Position numbers and translations under genes: made by a program. A stretch of DNA of 64,000 nucleotides from an uncultured Lentisphaerota bacterium (GTDB lineage Bacteria > Verrucomicrobiota > Kiritimatiellia > RFP12 > UBA1067), in NCBI GenBank assembly GCA_900320225.1, contig ONRL01000003.1, forward strand, positions 48,509 to 112,508, given 5' to 3'. Every line of letters begins with the position of its first letter. Position 1 is the first letter of the stretch. This document shows, one piece after another, positions 7,941 through 57,158 of this stretch. Under the pieces are notes generated by a model. The model was not told the DNA's origin. It was given only the letters and a program-made list of their open reading frames with translations, and ran no database searches.

Positions 7941-8130
7941 GGGCAGAAGCGGCAAGAGTGCCGCTTCTCCGAGGTGCGGCGCGTTGGTGTGCGCGGGCGA
8001 GGTCGCCCGCGCTTTTTTGTGGGGTGTGGGAGGACGTGGGACGGACGTAGGACGTAAGACGTAGGACTTTGGTTGCTTTGGGGGAGCCCGTAAGGCAGGA
8101 CAAAGTCTTACGTCCTACGTCTTACGTCCT
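7941..8130 (+). repeat. composite intergenic element, copy 1
   Basis: Same module order as copies 2 and 3: hairpin GAAGCGGCA-AGAG-TGCCGCTTC, a GC-stem/T-run terminator, then a long inverted repeat with GACGTAR-word arms around the conserved loop TTGCTTTGGGGGAGCCCGTAAGGCAGG. Confidence 0.85.
7991..8018 (+). terminator. intrinsic terminator within composite element copy 1
   Basis: GCGCGGGCG-loop-CGCCCGCGC followed by TTTTTT. Confidence 0.75.
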
Positions 8131-9367: not shown

Positions 9368-9557
9368 GGGCAGAAGCGGCAAGAGTGCCGCTTCCCCGAG
9401 GTGCGGTGCGTTGGTGTGCGCGGGCGAGTTCGCCCGCGCTTTTTTTTTGTGGGAGTGGGAGGGCGTGGGAGGGACGTAGGACGTAAGACGTAGGACTTTG
9501 GTTGCTTTGGGGGAGCCCGTAAGGCAAGCCAAAGTCTTACGTCCTACGTCTTACGCC
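9368..9557 (+). repeat. composite intergenic element, copy 2
   Basis: Near-identical to 7941-8130 when aligned by eye. Lies after the GNAT toxin gene. Confidence 0.85.
9418..9448 (+). terminator. intrinsic terminator within composite element copy 2
   Basis: GCGCGGGCG-AGTT-CGCCCGCGC followed by nine T. Confidence 0.8.
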
Positions 9558-9570
9558 CTGAAAGGGGATG

Positions 9571-9630
9571 AGGACAAAGGACAGAGGACAAAAGACAAAG
9601 GATTTAGGACTTCGGACATTGGGACAGAAA
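9571..9630. repeat. GGACARAG-word tract
   Basis: AGGACAAAGGACAGAGGACAAAAGACAAAGG..., the same word family as 16521-17762. Confidence 0.6.
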
Positions 9631-11688: not shown

Positions 11689-11718
11689 TTGCGCGGCGCG
11701 CGCTGAATATGGTATACT
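11689..11718 (+). promoter_or_regulatory. promoter TTGCGC-18-TGgTATACT
   Basis: -35 TTGCGC at 11689-94, extended -10 at 11710-18. Confidence 0.5.
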
Positions 11719-13612: not shown

Positions 13613-13700
13613 GGACGTAGGACGCAAGACGTAGGACTTTGGTTGCTTTGGGGGAGCCCGTAAGGCAGGCCAAAGTCTTACGTCCTACGTCTTACGTCCT
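13601..13700. repeat. GACGTAR-arm long hairpin, copy 4 (between convergent genes)
   Basis: GGTTGGTGAGGACGTAGGACGCAAGACGTAGGACTTTGG - loop - CCAAAGTCTTACGTCCTACGTCTTACGTCC. Contains the stop codons of both flanking genes. Confidence 0.85.
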
Positions 13701-14868
13701 TTCCAGGACCGTCGCGTAGCGCGGCAATGAGGCGCGTACGGTCGAACAGCTCTTCGGAGAGCTGGCGGGCACGGGCACCGCACGCGGGGCCCGCGCCGCG
13801 TTTGATGAGCTCCGCCATGCGGCGGAAGGCGTCCGCGATGGCGTCGAGGTCGTCCGGAGGCGCCGTCACGCCGAGCTGGTGTTCCTCGATGAGCTCGCGC
13901 GCGTCGCCGAGGAGGATGCCGAGGATCGGCTTGCCGGTCTTGATGTAGCTCTGGAACTTCCCCGGCAGGGTGAGCTGGTATTCCGGCGTGAGGGAGATGA
14001 TGAGCGCGTCCGCCTGCGCGAACCAGCGCGGCATGTCCGCCTTCGGCTGGCGTCCGTGGAACACGGCGCGCGCGCCGGAGGCGGCTGCCTTTTCCTTGAG
14101 GTGCTCGAGCTGCACGCCGCCGCCCACGAAGTGGAGTTCCGCGTCGGGGATGTCCGCGCGGGTGAAGCCCTCGAGGACGTTGTCGAGGTCCTGCGGCACG
14201 CCGAGGTTTCCCGCGAACATGAAGACGAGCCCCGCGTGCGGCGGCGCGGGGGGGAGTTCCATCGGCGCGGGGTCCCACTGCGGCACGAATTCGGCCTCGC
14301 GCCTGCAAAGCTCGCGGATGCGCGGCACGAACCCGCGGCAGCTCACGCAGATGCGGTCGCAGCGCTTGTAGATGCGGCGCACGAACCAGTTGAGGAGCGC
14401 CTCGCGGAAGCGCGTGCGCCGGAAGCCGAACCCCCATACGGCGTCCGGCCAGAGGTCCTGGGTCCAGATCGCGGTGGGCTTGCGCCAGACGGTCTTGAGC
14501 GCGAAGAGGGCGCTCGCCATCGTGAGGGCGGCCGTGTGGTACACGAACACGCGGTCGTACTTGCGCCCGTTCCAGAGCGCCCACCAGAACGTCATCCAGC
14601 CGAAGTGGAGGTAGTTGAGCACCTTGCGCTTCACGCTCGTGTTGTAGCCGAAGATGGTGCTCACGCGGTGGACGGGGATGTCGAGGTACTCGCGCGTGGT
14701 CTGGTAGGCCTTGTTCTTGTAGCCGTCGTAGACGCGGTCGAAGGGGTAGCTGGGCACCTGGGTGAGCACCTCCACCTCGTCGCCGAGTCGTTTCCACTCC
14801 GCGACGAGGTCGTTCACGAGGAAGTCCTCGGGGTAGAACCGCTCGACGATGACCAAGATTTTGCTCAT
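13678..14868 (-). CDS. glycosyltransferase family 4, WcaI-like
   Basis: N-terminus MSKILVIVERFYPEDFLVNDL...QVPSYP is typical of WcaI-type GT4 enzymes. The C-terminal codons and stop lie in the arm of hairpin element 13601-13700. Confidence 0.75.
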   Translation of the reverse strand: MSKILVIVERFYPEDFLVNDLVAEWKRLGDEVEVLTQVPSYPFDRVYDGYKNKAYQTTREYLDIPVHRVSTIFGYNTSVKRKVLNYLHFGWMTFWWALWNGRKYDRVFVYHTAALTMASALFALKTVWRKPTAIWTQDLWPDAVWGFGFRRTRFREALLNWFVRRIYKRCDRICVSCRGFVPRIRELCRREAEFVPQWDPAPMELPPAPPHAGLVFMFAGNLGVPQDLDNVLEGFTRADIPDAELHFVGGGVQLEHLKEKAAASGARAVFHGRQPKADMPRWFAQADALIISLTPEYQLTLPGKFQSYIKTGKPILGILLGDARELIEEHQLGVTAPPDDLDAIADAFRRMAELIKRGAGPACGARARQLSEELFDRTRLIAALRDGPGKDVRRRT

Positions 14869-14902: not shown

Positions 14903-14968
14903 GAGGACGTGGGACGTAAGACGTAGGACTTTGGCTGCTTTGGGTGAGCCCGTAAGGCGGGCCAAAGG
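14903..14968. repeat. GACGTAR-arm hairpin, copy 5a (left arm plus loop only)
   Basis: Left arm and conserved loop are present; the right arm is replaced by GGCTAAGCGG leading into copy 5b. Confidence 0.7.
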
Positions 14969-14970
14969 CT

Positions 14971-15070
14971 AAGCGGTTGGTGAGGACGTGGGACGTAGGA
15001 CGTAGGACTTTGGCTGCTTTGGGGGAGCCCGTAAGGCGAGCCAAAGTCTTACGTCTTACGTCCTACGTCC
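14971..15070. repeat. GACGTAR-arm long hairpin, copy 5b
   Basis: Shares the GGTTGGTGAGGACGT left flank with copy 4, and has full arms and loop. Confidence 0.85.
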
Positions 15071-15108
15071 TTGTCCCACGGTCCCACGCCTTTCCTAAAA
15101 GTTACCCC

Positions 15109-15137
15109 TTGCGCATGCCAATGGGGTGTGATAAACT
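15109..15137 (+). promoter_or_regulatory. promoter TTGCGC-17-TGaTAAACT driving the structured RNA and RNA ligase
   Basis: -35 at 15109-14, extended -10 at 15129-37. Confidence 0.45.
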
Positions 15138-15143
15138 AAGCCC

Positions 15144-15422
15144 ACCTGCCCGGAATTGATGCCGTCGATGCGGCTATACGGGGGCAGGCGTCCGGACGGG
15201 ACCCATGCCTGGCGTGCATGGGATCCTCTTGGGCCGGGTAGCGAGTTCATCCGCTGAAAAACGCGGATTGCCCGAAAGGGTTGGCGAGGCAGGGCCTATT
15301 CCTGACCATGCAGAGCTGTTTCTGCGTGGGGTTACTGCTGGTGCGGCGTCACTGTCGAGTGGCGAGGATGCCGCATGGCGGCCGCAAGGCCGTTTCAACA
15401 GAGTAACGACAGGAGTATCTCA
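15144..15422 (+). ncRNA. candidate structured leader or ncRNA upstream of RNA ligase
   Basis: Promoter 15109-15137 predicts a TSS near 15144. No credible ORF. Nested helices and two GNRA tetraloop hairpins are visible (CCC-GAAA-GGG 15271-15280; GGCC-GCAA-GGCC 15380-15391), along with a long-range pair GTTACT 15331-36/AGTAAC 15402-07. Confidence 0.35.
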
Positions 15423-16520
15423 ATGAGAAAACTGGCATCCCTGGTGGAGATCGCCTCGTGCGATCCCATCCCCGATACGGAACGGCTTTCCGTGGCAACA
15501 ATGAAAGGCAAGGGCTGGCGCGTAGTCACCGGCCGCGGCGAATTCGCGTCCGGCGACAAAGCGGTATACTTCGAAATCGACAGTTATCTTCCGCCGGACG
15601 ATGAACGCTTTGCGTTCCTCCGTGAACGGTGCCTTCGCAAGTTCGTGTCAAAGAGCGGCAGCGTGCTGCGCGAGGGGTTCCGTATCAAGACGGCGAAACT
15701 TCGCGGCGTCGTGTCGCAGGGGCTACTCATGCCTCTCGCGGCTTTCCCCGAGGCAAATGGGCTGGAGGTGGAGGCGGACCTGACCGATCTGCTGAAAGTC
15801 GACCACTACGACGAAGTGAAGGAACAGCTTCAGCCCGCCATGGGGAATCCGCTGAACTCCGACGCGATGGGGGCGTTCCCATCGTACATTCCAAAGAGCG
15901 ACGAGGAACGGCTTCAGGGGTTGACCGAGTACTTCACGTCGCTGAAGGGGCGCCGCTTTGAGATCACGGCGAAGGACGACGGTTCGTCCGCGACGATGTT
16001 CTTCTCGCCGACGATCGATCCCGAGGAACCGTTCGGTGTCTGTTCGCGGAACCTGCGTCTGAAGCGTCCGGTGGAAGGGGGCGTCGTCTCGGCGTTCTGG
16101 CAGACTGCCGTGAAATACGACATCGAGGCGAAGCTCAGGAAGTTCTTCGAGGAATCGCACCTTGAAATCGCCTTGCAGGGCGAATTGGTCGGCCCTGGGA
16201 TCAACGCCGACCGGGACCGTTATTCGGAATACGAATTCCACGTCTTCAGGATCTGGGACGTGTGCGCGCAGCGTTTCATGATGCCGCGCGACCGCGTGGC
16301 GTTCTGCGCGAAGTTCGCGATCCCGCATGTACAGGTGCTGCACGAGGATTTCCCGTTCTTTGACAAGGTCACGACGATGGACGCCGCGCTCAAGTTCGCC
16401 GAGGGCAAGACCCTGCGGGGCAACGAGCGCGAGGGGATCGTGCTGAAGGCTTCTGATGGGCTTGACGACACGCACTTCAAGGTCGTGTCGAACAGGTACT
16501 TGCTGAAGCAGCAGGATTGA
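15423..16520 (+). CDS. ATP-dependent RNA ligase, Rnl5/DRB0094 (DraRnl-like) family
   Basis: N-terminal OB-like module (VEIASCDPIPDTERLSVATMKGKGWRVVTGRGEFASGDKAVYFEIDS) followed by nucleotidyltransferase motif I AKDDGSS. AGGAG lies 7 nt before ATG 15423. Confidence 0.75.
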   Translation: MRKLASLVEIASCDPIPDTERLSVATMKGKGWRVVTGRGEFASGDKAVYFEIDSYLPPDDERFAFLRERCLRKFVSKSGSVLREGFRIKTAKLRGVVSQGLLMPLAAFPEANGLEVEADLTDLLKVDHYDEVKEQLQPAMGNPLNSDAMGAFPSYIPKSDEERLQGLTEYFTSLKGRRFEITAKDDGSSATMFFSPTIDPEEPFGVCSRNLRLKRPVEGGVVSAFWQTAVKYDIEAKLRKFFEESHLEIALQGELVGPGINADRDRYSEYEFHVFRIWDVCAQRFMMPRDRVAFCAKFAIPHVQVLHEDFPFFDKVTTMDAALKFAEGKTLRGNEREGIVLKASDGLDDTHFKVVSNRYLLKQQD

Positions 16521-16627
16521 GGACAGAGGACAGAAGACGGAGGACAGAGGATGACAGGACAAAGGACCTTGGACAATGGGACGCGCGAAGCGACGGGTCT
16601 TTGTCTTTTGTCTTTCGTCCTCTGTCC
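16521..16627. repeat. long imperfect hairpin with GGACARAG-word arms, 'empty' copy
   Basis: GA-rich left arm 16521-16568, loop TTGGACAATGGGACGCGCGAAGCGACGGG 16569-16597, CT-rich right arm 16598-16627. Confidence 0.75.
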
Positions 16628-16638
16628 TAAAACGAGAA

Positions 16639-16758
16639 AGGACAAAGGACAGAAGACGGAGGACAAAAGATGTTAGGACAAAGGACAGAAGACGGAGGAC
16701 AAAAGATGTTAGGACAAAGGACAGAAGACGGAGGACAAAGGATGTTAGGACAAAGGAC
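16639..16758 (+). repeat. 36-bp tandem repeat (3.3 copies) of GGACARAG words
   Basis: AGGACAAAGGACAGAAGACGGAGGACAAAAGATGTT at 16639, 16675 and 16711, with a partial fourth copy running into the loop motif at 16760. Confidence 0.85.
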
Positions 16759-17542
16759 TTTGGACAATGGGACGCGCGAAGCGACGGGATCATTCCGGAT
16801 CATTGGCCATTATGGCGGGTATCGGAAGATGTACTCCTTCGGGTTCACGTGTCTCGTGTACCACGCAACGACGTTATTCTGCAAGCGCAACTTCAACTAC
16901 AGGAACGACGCTCTCGGCAAGACCGTGGGACAGATGGTCGGTGCCGCTCGGAGTGCGCGCCAGAACATCGTCGAGGCGTCGAGCCGCGCTGCGACGTCCA
17001 AGGAGCAGGAGCTACGACAGCTAGATGTCGCGAAGGGCTCGCTTGACGAGTTGGCCGGCGACTACGAAGTGTTCCTCGTGGATGCGGGCGAGGCGCCGTG
17101 GTCGCAGTCCGACGAACGTTATCAGACGGTCAAGGCGCTGAAACTGGACGCCTTCGACGCAACGGACGATCTTGACCATGAGTTCGGGGAATACATTCTG
17201 GCGATGCGACGGCGCTGTGCCGAGTGGCTTGAGAACGAAGACCCTCTTGTCGCTGCGAATGCCATCCTGATCACGATCCGCAGGGCCGCCGCGTTTTTGA
17301 AGGGCCAGATGGACAAGACGGCCGATGCGTTTCTTGAAGAAGGCGGTTTCACCGAACGGATGAGCCGTGCGCGAATCGTGGCACGTGACGAGAAGACGCG
17401 CGCGAACCATGGCGACACGCCGAAATGTCCGCGCTGCGGACGCAATCTCCGCAAGATGGTGGCACGCAAGGGCCGCAACGCGGGGAACGAGTTCTGGGGA
17501 TGTTCCGGCTATCCAGAGTGCGACTTCACGCGGAACGTGTGA
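16742..17542 (+). CDS. four-helix-bundle protein (23S rRNA IVS-protein family, suffix-domain type) fused to a C-terminal topoisomerase-type C4 zinc ribbon
   Basis: GGYRKMYSF...GQMVGAARSARQNIVEASSRAATSKEQELRQLDVAKGSLDELAGDYEVFL matches the four-helix-bundle family pattern. The C-terminus CPRCGRNLRKMV...FWGCSGYPECDF is a Topo-type Zn ribbon. The start is uncertain because the N-terminal codons lie in 36-bp tandem repeats. Confidence 0.6.
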   Translation: MLGQRTLDNGTREATGSFRIIGHYGGYRKMYSFGFTCLVYHATTLFCKRNFNYRNDALGKTVGQMVGAARSARQNIVEASSRAATSKEQELRQLDVAKGSLDELAGDYEVFLVDAGEAPWSQSDERYQTVKALKLDAFDATDDLDHEFGEYILAMRRRCAEWLENEDPLVAANAILITIRRAAAFLKGQMDKTADAFLEEGGFTERMSRARIVARDEKTRANHGDTPKCPRCGRNLRKMVARKGRNAGNEFWGCSGYPECDFTRNV

Positions 17543-17568
17543 ACCGCGGCAAGGCGCTGGCTCTCCGG

Positions 17569-17762
17569 CCTTTGTCTTTTGTCCTTTGTCCTCCCGACTT
17601 TGTCTTTTGTCTTCTGTCTTCTGTCCTGAAGGGGAAAGAGGACAGAGGACAAAGGACAGAAGACAAAGGATGGGACAGAGAACAAAGGACAGAGGACAAA
17701 GGATGAGACGAGAGGACAGAGGACAGAAGACAAAGGACAGAGGACAAAGGACCTTGGACTTT
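17569..17762. repeat. CT-rich arm, short loop and extended GGACARAG-word tract after the four-helix-bundle gene
   Basis: CCTTTGTCTTTTGTCC... 17569-17626 is complementary in type to the GA arms. Local hairpin with 17640-17670. Ends in GGACAAAGGACCTTGGAC. Confidence 0.75.
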
Positions 17763-17775
17763 GGGCCCTAAAATG

Positions 17776-17784
17776 TGGTATACT
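17776..17784 (+). promoter_or_regulatory. extended -10 promoter (TGgTATACT), 7 nt before fnlA ATG 17792
   Basis: The spacing implies a leaderless or near-leaderless mRNA. Confidence 0.5.
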
Positions 17785-46476: not shown

Positions 46477-46630
46477 GATTTTTCCTTTTCTAACGGGCTT
46501 CACGGCAGAGAGTTGAGCCATTTTAGAAAAACCCAACTCGGTGTCAACGTTTGCAAGTGTAACAAATCCTCTTGATAAGTGCAAAGCAATCTTGATTGTA
46601 AAGATTTAAATTACATCCATATTTTCATCA

Positions 46631-46659
46631 TTGACTTCTGAGACAAAAACTGATATACT
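46631..46659 (+). promoter_or_regulatory. promoter TTGACT-17-TGaTATACT, 6 nt before ATG 46666
   Basis: Best full sigma70-type match in the window. Confidence 0.6.
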
Positions 46660-57113: not shown

Positions 57114-57149
57114 CGCGTTTCGCCGGGATTGCGGAGCGGCGAGGGGCTG

Positions 57150-57158
57150 TGGTATAAT
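57150..57158 (+). promoter_or_regulatory. extended -10 promoter (TGgTATAAT), 7 nt before ATG 57166
   Basis: Leaderless-type spacing. Confidence 0.5.

Follow-up and report, generated by a model that had tools for sequence, protein, structure and literature searches.

The operator of Escherichia coli thrS and the leaders of ribosomal-protein messages are autoregulatory mRNA operators that mimic the RNA substrate of the protein involved. The IscB omega-RNA (HEARO) and the IS110 bridge RNA are enzyme-partner RNAs, encoded in the 5′ untranslated region (UTR) of the enzyme gene. In rsr-yrlBA-rtcBA operons, a Y RNA or YrlA is co-encoded with the RNA ligase RtcB (PMC7790460), and the Fibro-purF motif (PMC7668255) is a conserved structured RNA confined to the 5′ leader of one gene type, with few unique representatives from a narrow group of rumen and gut bacteria and a ligand that was unknown at discovery. 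The Rnl5 family, defined by an OB domain at the N-terminus, an adenylyltransferase domain joined to it that carries a KxDG lysine motif, and homology to DraRnl and NgrRnl, consists of nick-sealing ligases widespread among bacteria, phages, archaea and eukaryotes, whose physiological roles and substrates have been called "uncharted" (PMC5397189). Here we describe a structured RNA directly upstream of an Rnl5-type RNA ligase gene in a 64,000-nucleotide (nt) stretch of contig ONRL01000003.1 from an uncultured Lentisphaerota bacterium. This stretch is referred to as the window, and all position numbers refer to it; the RNA element occupies 15143–15422 on the + strand. Comparative sequence analysis confirms that the element is a genuine structured, functional RNA, whose helices are kept by compensatory change.

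The features named for the Fibro-purF motif recur at the present locus. Compared to that motif and similar rare riboswitch candidates, however, the RNA is far larger (~275 nt, 12 helices), is negative in Rfam, shows no similarity in sequence or structure, and precedes a nucleic-acid repair enzyme instead of a metabolic one, so that no metabolite is obvious. With the thrS and ribosomal-protein operators it has in common a lineage-restricted structured leader, a Shine-Dalgarno (SD) sequence within or beside the structure, and an RNA-binding enzyme encoded downstream, but the leader is larger here, and no recognisable mimic of a tRNA, an rRNA or a nicked duplex was identified in it. As with Y RNA and YrlA, a structured non-coding RNA lies in the predicted transcription unit of a ligase, beside a gene for a putative RNA-binding protein. 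The ligase is an Rnl5 enzyme here and RtcB there, and the RNA overlaps the ligase SD; moreover, no Ro/TROVE gene is adjacent, ARAGORN detects no tRNA-like domain and no tRNA or transfer-messenger RNA, and Rfam gives no match to Y RNA or YrlA. Like the omega-RNA and the bridge RNA, the element is a multi-helix RNA of ~200–300 nt directly upstream of the gene of a nucleic-acid enzyme; it differs in having no transposon ends, no variable guide loops and no HEARO match in Rfam, and in that orthologues of the ligase occur without it. Rfam searches were negative, and literature searches found no description of this RNA. We regard it as a new and unusually large family within a familiar general class, that of structured 5′ leaders.

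The RNA lies in the intergenic region 15109–15422, between a divergent GT4 glycosyltransferase gene (13678–14868, − strand) and a 365-amino-acid open reading frame (ORF), the ligase, that starts at 15423 on the + strand. Its elements, together with the promoter and the gene that frame them, are listed below.

15109–15137, + strand: promoter, with the −35 element TTGCGC (15109–15114), a 17-nt spacer and an extended −10 element, TG (15129–15130) plus TAAACT (15132–15137)
15145–15188, + strand: helix P1, outer part CCTGCCC/GGGCAGG and inner part GCCGT/GCGGC, with a conserved internal loop GGARUUGAU/UAWAsRR
15189–15197, + strand: junction J1/2, CGUCCGGAC, invariant in all copies in the alignments
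15198–15227, + strand: helix P2, GGGA/TCCT plus CCCATGC/GCATGGG, with a variable loop
15228–15248, + strand: junction J2/3, CUUGGGCCGGGUAGCGAGUUC, nearly invariant in the alignments, with one U-to-G change in locus L076
15249–15268, + strand: hairpin P3, ATCCGC/GCGGAT, with the loop UGAAAAAC
15270–15281, + strand: hairpin P4, GCCC-GAAA-GGGU, with an invariant GAAA tetraloop
15283–15296, + strand: helix P5, GGC/GCC, which closes the loop GAGGCAGG, with an invariant GGCAGGG
15297–15304, + strand: 5′ strand of helix P6, the anti-SD UAUUCCUG, from minimum free energy (MFE) and alignment folds; AUUCC is invariant
15306–15329, + strand: hairpin P7, CCATGCAGAG/TTCTGCGTGG
15331–15407, + strand: three-way junction, in which P8, GTTACT(G)CTG/CAG-AGTAAC, encloses P9, P10 and P11
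15410–15417, + strand: 3′ strand of helix P6, CAGGAGUA, containing the ligase SD
15423–16520, + strand: Rnl5-type ATP-dependent RNA ligase, 365 amino acids, by its PF21189 OB domain, PF09414 and a match to NgrRnl

The + strand folds with an MFE of −136.2 kcal/mol (z = −3.74), equalled by none of 200 shuffles, whereas the − strand reaches z = −2.05. A structure of 12 helices and 82 pairs was drawn from the window by adding P5, P6 and an outer part of P2 to the helices that the first-pass annotation had traced by eye, and its pairs were counted on a plain, unfitted MAFFT alignment of 12 copies, with the 3′ partners slid by 1–3 columns and with 500 shuffles as controls. Standard pairs are formed in 93.2% of the alignment cells, compared to 39–46% with slid partners, and 32 of the 82 pairs have changed on both sides, compared to 3–7; none of the 500 shuffles matches the observed values for pairing, double changes or covariation. 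With an alignment based on a covariance model, 94.5% of cells are paired and 34 pairs show changes on both sides. In P1, P2, P7, P9 and P11, each lineage may build the helix from a sequence of its own. Ten or more pairs are predominantly G-U, for which the opposite strand would give C-A, and this fixes the + strand as the RNA strand. A chance fold is excluded by the z-score and the slid-partner controls. The first-pass annotation had proposed a GNRA-capped architecture of several helices, and this is what the homologous ligase upstream regions support, with strong covariation. All the helices it had listed are present at their positions, with some adjustments in extent: the helix GCAGA/TCTGC is the core of a 10-base-pair helix, P7, formed by 15306–15315 with 15320–15329, the hairpin CCC-GAAA-GGG has four pairs and not three, and the outer part of P2, P5 (15283–15285 with 15294–15296) and the anti-SD:SD helix P6 had been overlooked.

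Within the 5′ part of the RNA, P1 is paired in 98% of cells and has changed on both sides in five of seven outer and two of five inner pairs, and its internal loop is conserved while the flanking helices vary. By eye, this loop did not fit the consensus of a k-turn or of a loop E/sarcin-ricin motif. In P2, 8/11 pairs have changed on both sides, and CCCAUGC/GCAUGGG is replaced by CUUGCAG/CUGCAGG, UUCGCGA/UCGCGAA and AUCGCGG/UCGCGGU. The core UCCGC/GCGGA of P3 is conserved, with a U-A to C-G exchange in L076 and a terminal A-U to U-A exchange in L030. P4 and P5 are paired in 100% of cells each; changes in P4 are limited to G-C/G-U and C-G/U-G, and the middle pair of P5 is G-C in seven copies and A-U in five. 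Further downstream, half of the ten pairs of P7 have changed on both sides (97.5% of cells paired). In the three-way junction, P9 (GTGCGGC/GCCGCAT) has three such pairs and P11 (GGCGGCC-GCAA-GGCCGTT) four; P10 is GTCAC/GTGGC, the internal loop GAGRRY on the 3′ side is conserved, and the register of P8 shifts in other lineages (GUUACUGC/GCAGUAAC). P11 runs through the series GGCC-GCAA-GGCC, GACC-GCAA-GGUC, CAGUC-GUAA-GACUG, CCGGUC-GAAA-GACCGG and CGGUC-GCGA-GGCCG, so its loop is GCAA, GUAA, GAAA or GCGA, and in one sublineage UAAC. This UAAC-for-GCAA swap (aligned with 15384–15387) occurs in L020, L021, L059 and L066, where the closing pair becomes U-G; we take UAAC to be a UMAC-type loop, able to adopt a GNRA-like fold. 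The invariant or nearly invariant stretches are CGUCCGGAC, CUUGGGCCGGGUAGCGAGUU, GGARUUGAU of the P1 loop, the GAAA hairpin P4, GGCAGGG, GGGUUACUGC and the GAGRRY loop, and GGGUAGCGAG groups with CGUCCGGAC and GGCAGGG among the junction stretches. Three GCGAG-like motifs occur in the invariant, purine-rich junctions, and the variable loops measure 4–10 nt. Inspection of the RNA by eye revealed no 11-nt GNRA receptor and no convincing tRNA-like arm.

The promoter that the first-pass annotation had read as TTGCGC-17-TGaTAAACT is borne out by comparison. An equivalent, TTGYGY-17-TGnTAnAnT, is present in all six lineages and ends 6–8 nt ahead of P1, as compared among L001, L026, L074, L076 and L134, in which the sequence around the promoter has diverged (for example TGGTATAAT in L074, TGGTAAAAT in L076 and TGGTACAAT in L134). 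A generic sigma-70 scan missed it, because its −35 element has just three of the six consensus bases. The promoter sequence predicts a transcription start at about 15143–15145. The distance from the promoter to the ATG at 15423 is 285 nt, as against 6–28 nt for the other extended −10 promoters in the window, so that the unusual spacing claimed earlier holds as well. These other promoters (TGnTAnAnT) lie at 11689–11718, 17754–17784, 46631–46659 and 57129–57158 on the + strand and at 46584–46556 on the − strand. The source organism thus seems to favour 5′ UTRs that are very short or near-leaderless, and against these a 280-nt leader is conspicuous. A generic terminator scan found no terminator-like site within 15140–15422. 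The short run of U that follows P11 is not conserved, L074, L076 and L134 have no U-tract, and P11 is nested inside P8; the structure itself reaches 15417, 5 nt short of the ligase ATG. As to an independent small-RNA gene, a promoter is present and an own 3′ end before the next gene was not found. The earlier claim of a promoter-driven, non-coding structured RNA upstream of an Rnl5-type ligase is supported by all of this. Its contrast between a functional structured RNA and a plain 5′ UTR is not supported in that form, as the fold runs free of terminators up to and including the ligase SD.

The sequence of the downstream gene identifies it as a true Rnl5-type ligase. Residues 4–105 form the OB domain PF21189, which has weak matches to tRNA-binding domains, and residues 178–355 form the adenylyltransferase domain PF09414; the KxDG lysine motif (K184-x-D186-G187) is invariant among homologues, and Naegleria NgrRnl (5COT) is matched across residues 2–365 with E = 1e-47. 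The model TIGR02306, "RNA_lig_DRB0094", scores 147.6 bits, slightly below its cut-off of 151. The automatic ORF call carries the ligase frame further upstream, as far as the ATG at 15375; the true start is placed at 15423 by the N-terminus MRKLAS, which is conserved, and by the Shine-Dalgarno AGGAG.

No known RNA family accounts for the element. With Rfam 15, whose families include riboswitches, T-box, leaders, RNase P, 6S, SRP, tmRNA, Y RNA/YrlA, HEARO, ROOL, GOLLD and raiA, the whole window gave no match at the gathering score, and in evalue mode (up to E = 10) nothing was found inside 15100–15422 or in the most divergent copies, L074 and L076; the only matches in this mode were spurious ones of microRNA type on the flanking long hairpins. 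The possibility that the interval is a known riboswitch or leader, which the first-pass annotation had left for Rfam to decide, thus found no match. A diverged housekeeping RNA located here by chance was also considered and rejected, as each copy stands just ahead of the ligase gene, amid flanks that differ.

Relatives of the ligase number in the thousands, and the closest (76–96% identical) come from metagenome-assembled genomes (MAGs) of rumen Kiritimatiellae and from rumen metagenomes. The RNA was found upstream of the window's own ligase group (88–96% identical; L001, L002, L020–L031, L059 and L066), of ligase P0011 (79%; L054, L057 and L074), of P0014 (78%; L076) and of P0009 (81%; L134 and L135, with a covariance-model score of 232 bits). 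It occurs in at least six sequence lineages, all on contigs of rumen or gut Kiritimatiellae type, a narrow distribution in which all 20-plus copies found directly precede the ligase. The RNA is absent ahead of ligases P0005, P0010, P0012/L003, P0013, P0016 and P0017, which are 76–84% identical and sit 12–72 nt behind other genes; given such close orthologues, the ligase has no strict need of the RNA as a cofactor. In a neighbour-joining tree of the ligases, RNA-bearing and RNA-less states are interleaved, which implies either that the leader is ancestral and was lost two or more times, or that it was gained repeatedly. In more distant Rnl5 genes, the gap on the upstream side is mostly short. 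Some RNA-less ligases (L012, L019, L075 and the P0013 locus) belong to operons in which they follow HAD-hydrolase and AAA_14/DUF4143 or ATPase_2/DUF234 genes. The ligase recurs in variable surface-polysaccharide synthesis clusters, also in the case of RNA-less orthologues.

Further copies were not found by nhmmer and the covariance model R1 over the window, the related loci and 57 viral-contig ligase loci (451 kb in total), and a blastn "distant" search of phage and plasmid collections gave no match to the RNA. A pattern scan of viral contigs with GGGCCGGGTAGCGAG returned 22 matches, all of them judged by context to be chance. The corresponding metagenome scan with CGGGTAGCGAGN{25,55}CGAGGCAGGG gave 20 matches, four of them true (L054, L057, L059 and L066); being too strict, this pattern missed L076 and L134, and both were reached through their ligases.

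Downstream of the ligase lies a second gene of interest, and upstream of the RNA promoter a region of repeats.

16790–17542 (or from 16670), + strand: four-helix-bundle protein with a suffix domain and a C-terminal zinc ribbon of Top1 type (TIGR02436, TIGR04258, PF01396)
14905–15090, no strand assigned: long imperfect hairpins of GGAC-type repeats, in the flank outside the RNA, between the glycosyltransferase promoter and the RNA promoter

The four-helix-bundle/zinc-ribbon protein has ~250 amino acids, and the uncertainty in its start arises where the annotated N-terminus runs into tandem repeats. It matches PF05635 weakly, the family of the Avd accessory proteins of diversity-generating retroelements (PMC10053308), and no relative with a solved structure was found by sequence. 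PADLOC matched neither this protein nor the ligase to a defence-system family. By tblastn, the gene follows the ligase in every RNA-bearing locus with enough sequence and in no RNA-less locus, and the protein is 82–99% identical among the former. The order RNA, ligase, four-helix bundle is kept while the outer flanks vary (Wzy-like, AAA_15/DUF3226, GT4 and epimerase genes). The family is probably multi-copy: it yielded 764 matches in more than 100 clusters at 64–95% identity, as against 17 ligase clusters at ≥76%, and it so far outnumbers the latter that most copies cannot be ligase neighbours. For this reason the idea that the RNA, the ligase and this protein form a single functional unit was downgraded, and the link between RNA and protein may be either functional coupling or synteny only.

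GGACA/GGACG-type heptamer repeats fill the intergenic gaps at 14905–15090, 16518–16770 and 17560–17760, and occur also at 8032, 9472–9614 and 11575; a 36-nt unit is repeated 3.3 times in tandem at 16639–16758 with 98% matches. The GGAC-type repeats lie on either side of the RNA-ligase unit and of the four-helix-bundle gene, and their long hairpins separate the ligase from that gene. Similar repeats precede the RNA promoter in L002, L074 and L076. They may be terminators or elements resembling repetitive extragenic palindromes (REP).

On balance, the RNA is probably the 5′ leader of the ligase mRNA, acting in cis on ligase translation. It lies on the same strand as the ligase, downstream of the predicted promoter and directly upstream of the ATG. 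A cis-regulatory leader is favoured over an obligatory substrate or guide because the fold includes the SD without a terminator and because orthologues of the ligase exist without the RNA. We postulate that transcription would start from the conserved extended −10 promoter at about 15143–15145, and that the first ~275 nt would fold into a 5′ domain, P1–P5, with the invariant junctions CGUCCGGAC and CUUGGGCCGGGUAGCGAGUU, and a 3′ domain, P7–P11. The 3′ domain would be closed by P6, in which the anti-SD UAUUCCUG pairs with the ligase SD. In the folded state, the ribosome-binding site (RBS) would be occluded and translation off or low, and a signal that stabilises or loosens the fold would set the level of ligase synthesis. 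The regulatory role and the nature of the signal are what we infer from this arrangement.

The central pairing of this scheme is found by both the MFE fold and RNAalifold, which pair UAUUCCUG (15297–15304) with the SD strand CAGGAGUA (15410–15417) and so close the whole 3′ domain. In the window this duplex reaches −10.5 kcal/mol; across all six lineages the values run from −5.2 to −10.5 kcal/mol, with lineage-specific extensions of P6 (UCUAUUCC/GGAAAUAGA in L134; GUC...UUCC/GGAA...GAC in L076). For the SD, the mean probability of being unpaired is 0.13–0.16 in the window group (0.13 in the window itself) and 0.37–0.51 in other lineages with the leader, and 0.40–0.70 in ligase loci without the RNA. 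The evidence from these predictions for RBS occlusion by P6 is suggestive, not decisive. Three SD-like GGARU motifs are present, at 15152–15156 (P1 loop), 15264–15268 (3′ arm of P3) and 15411–15415 (the true SD), as are two AUYCC motifs, in the 5′ arm of P3 and in the anti-SD. In the MFE fold of L074, partners are exchanged among these motifs. The GGARU and AUYCC motifs could pair in mutually exclusive ways, which may provide a switching logic.

Several observations weigh against a cis-acting leader. P6 is weak in L074, L076 and L134 (−5 to −7 kcal/mol), where 11–32% of shuffled anti-SD strands equal it, and covariation cannot prove this helix because the SD and AUUCC are nearly invariant. For the "on" structure, the GGARU motifs in the P1 loop and the 3′ arm of P3 are candidate competitors. 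Both ends of the RNA, and its transcription together with the ligase, are likewise predicted from the letters of the locus. With ~275 nt and 12 helices, the RNA far exceeds what an SD-masking element needs and is larger than almost all riboswitch aptamers, a size and helix count that would fit an RNA with a function of its own. Finally, its presence tracks the downstream four-helix-bundle/zinc-ribbon gene, which a pure leader model leaves unexplained.

As to the signal that such a leader might sense, a protein-responsive operator is a real, if tentative, possibility; the binder could be the ligase, whose OB domain might recognise a substrate-like junction of stacked helices, or the four-helix-bundle/zinc-ribbon protein. 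A small-molecule riboswitch appears doubtful, and a leader that senses RNA damage through being cleaved itself would be very improbable. By pure inference, we favour a protein over a metabolite as the input, because the RNA is large and lineage-restricted and has purine-rich junctions with GCGAG-like motifs, and because two nucleic-acid-binding proteins are encoded in the RNA-ligase unit.

The excess size and the constant neighbourhood of the RNA are better accommodated if it accompanies the ligase, and possibly the four-helix-bundle protein, as a stable non-coding partner RNA, with the role of a scaffold, a splint, a substrate mimic or a decoy within a repair ribonucleoprotein. Such an RNA would come from the 5′ end of the transcript and would resemble the Y RNAs of rsr-yrlBA-rtcBA or 5′-UTR guide RNAs, and a non-coding RNA co-encoded with an RNA ligase has a precedent (PMC7790460). 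Its size, twelve helices, invariant junctions, invariant GAAA loop and GNRA loop resemble a tertiary-folded RNA, the order RNA, ligase, four-helix bundle persists amid differing flanks, and RNA and four-helix-bundle gene are jointly present or absent across the interleaved ligase tree. Against this, the RNA has no terminator or defined 3′ end and takes the SD into its fold, close orthologues of the ligase lack it, its loops of 4–10 nt leave no large variable loops for programmable guides, Y RNA and YrlA are not matched, and the four-helix-bundle family, with its more than 100 clusters to the 17 of the ligase, consists mostly of proteins that are not ligase neighbours. We therefore consider a partner RNA, the foremost of the alternatives, conceivable and somewhat doubtful. 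A bolder proposal, and an unlikely one, is that the RNA is a dedicated component of an Rnl5 repair module, either as a damage sensor or as a scaffold or splint with the four-helix-bundle protein. As a sensor, it would mimic a ligase substrate, such that cleavage by a ribotoxin or under stress would free the SD and re-sealing by the ligase would shut expression off; as a scaffold or splint, the RNA and the four-helix-bundle/zinc-ribbon protein would direct the nick-sealing ligase to particular RNAs.

At the other extreme, the RNA might be a structured 5′ UTR without any sensing, that is, an mRNA stabiliser or a processing element that protects the message or fixes translation at a low level. 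P1 begins a few nt from the predicted start, like known stabilising 5′ stem-loops, and the host normally uses very short leaders. For stabilisation, however, the invariant single-stranded stretches CGUCCGGAC, CUUGGGCCGGGUAGCGAGUU and GGCAGGG and the conserved internal loops would be superfluous, and twelve helices under compensatory change imply selection on a specific architecture, which makes a passive role quite improbable. A small-protein gene or an accidental GC-rich fold is scarcely credible. Mechanical ORFs do exist, of 73 amino acids on the + strand (15205–15426) and of 74 on the − strand; homologues show neither a conserved start nor a conserved frame, and carry indels that are not multiples of three. 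The + strand ORF begins with an ATG within P2 that has been lost in L026, its frame is shifted by indels of +1 and +2 separated by 170 nt, the sets of ORFs differ in every lineage, and substitutions are compensatory in stems and not codon-periodic, while an accidental fold is opposed by the z-score and the slid controls. Public gene callers place ORFs of 44, 73 and 92 amino acids over the RNA (L020 2152–2504, L023 2152–2504 and L134 95–373), and these look like false protein calls in a GC-rich structured RNA.

The locus thus provides an instance of public gene callers annotating a structured RNA as small ORFs. It adds a large structured RNA family from uncultured rumen Kiritimatiellae, a group for which, to our knowledge, almost no RNA biology is known. 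For the Rnl5 family, the leader offers an experimental handle, in that whatever opens or closes it would be the signal for ligase need. If the ligase or the neighbouring protein binds the RNA, the RNA would reveal the type of structure that the enzyme recognises. Should the RNA prove to be a component of the repair module, it would give Rnl5 ligases their first physiological RNA partner.

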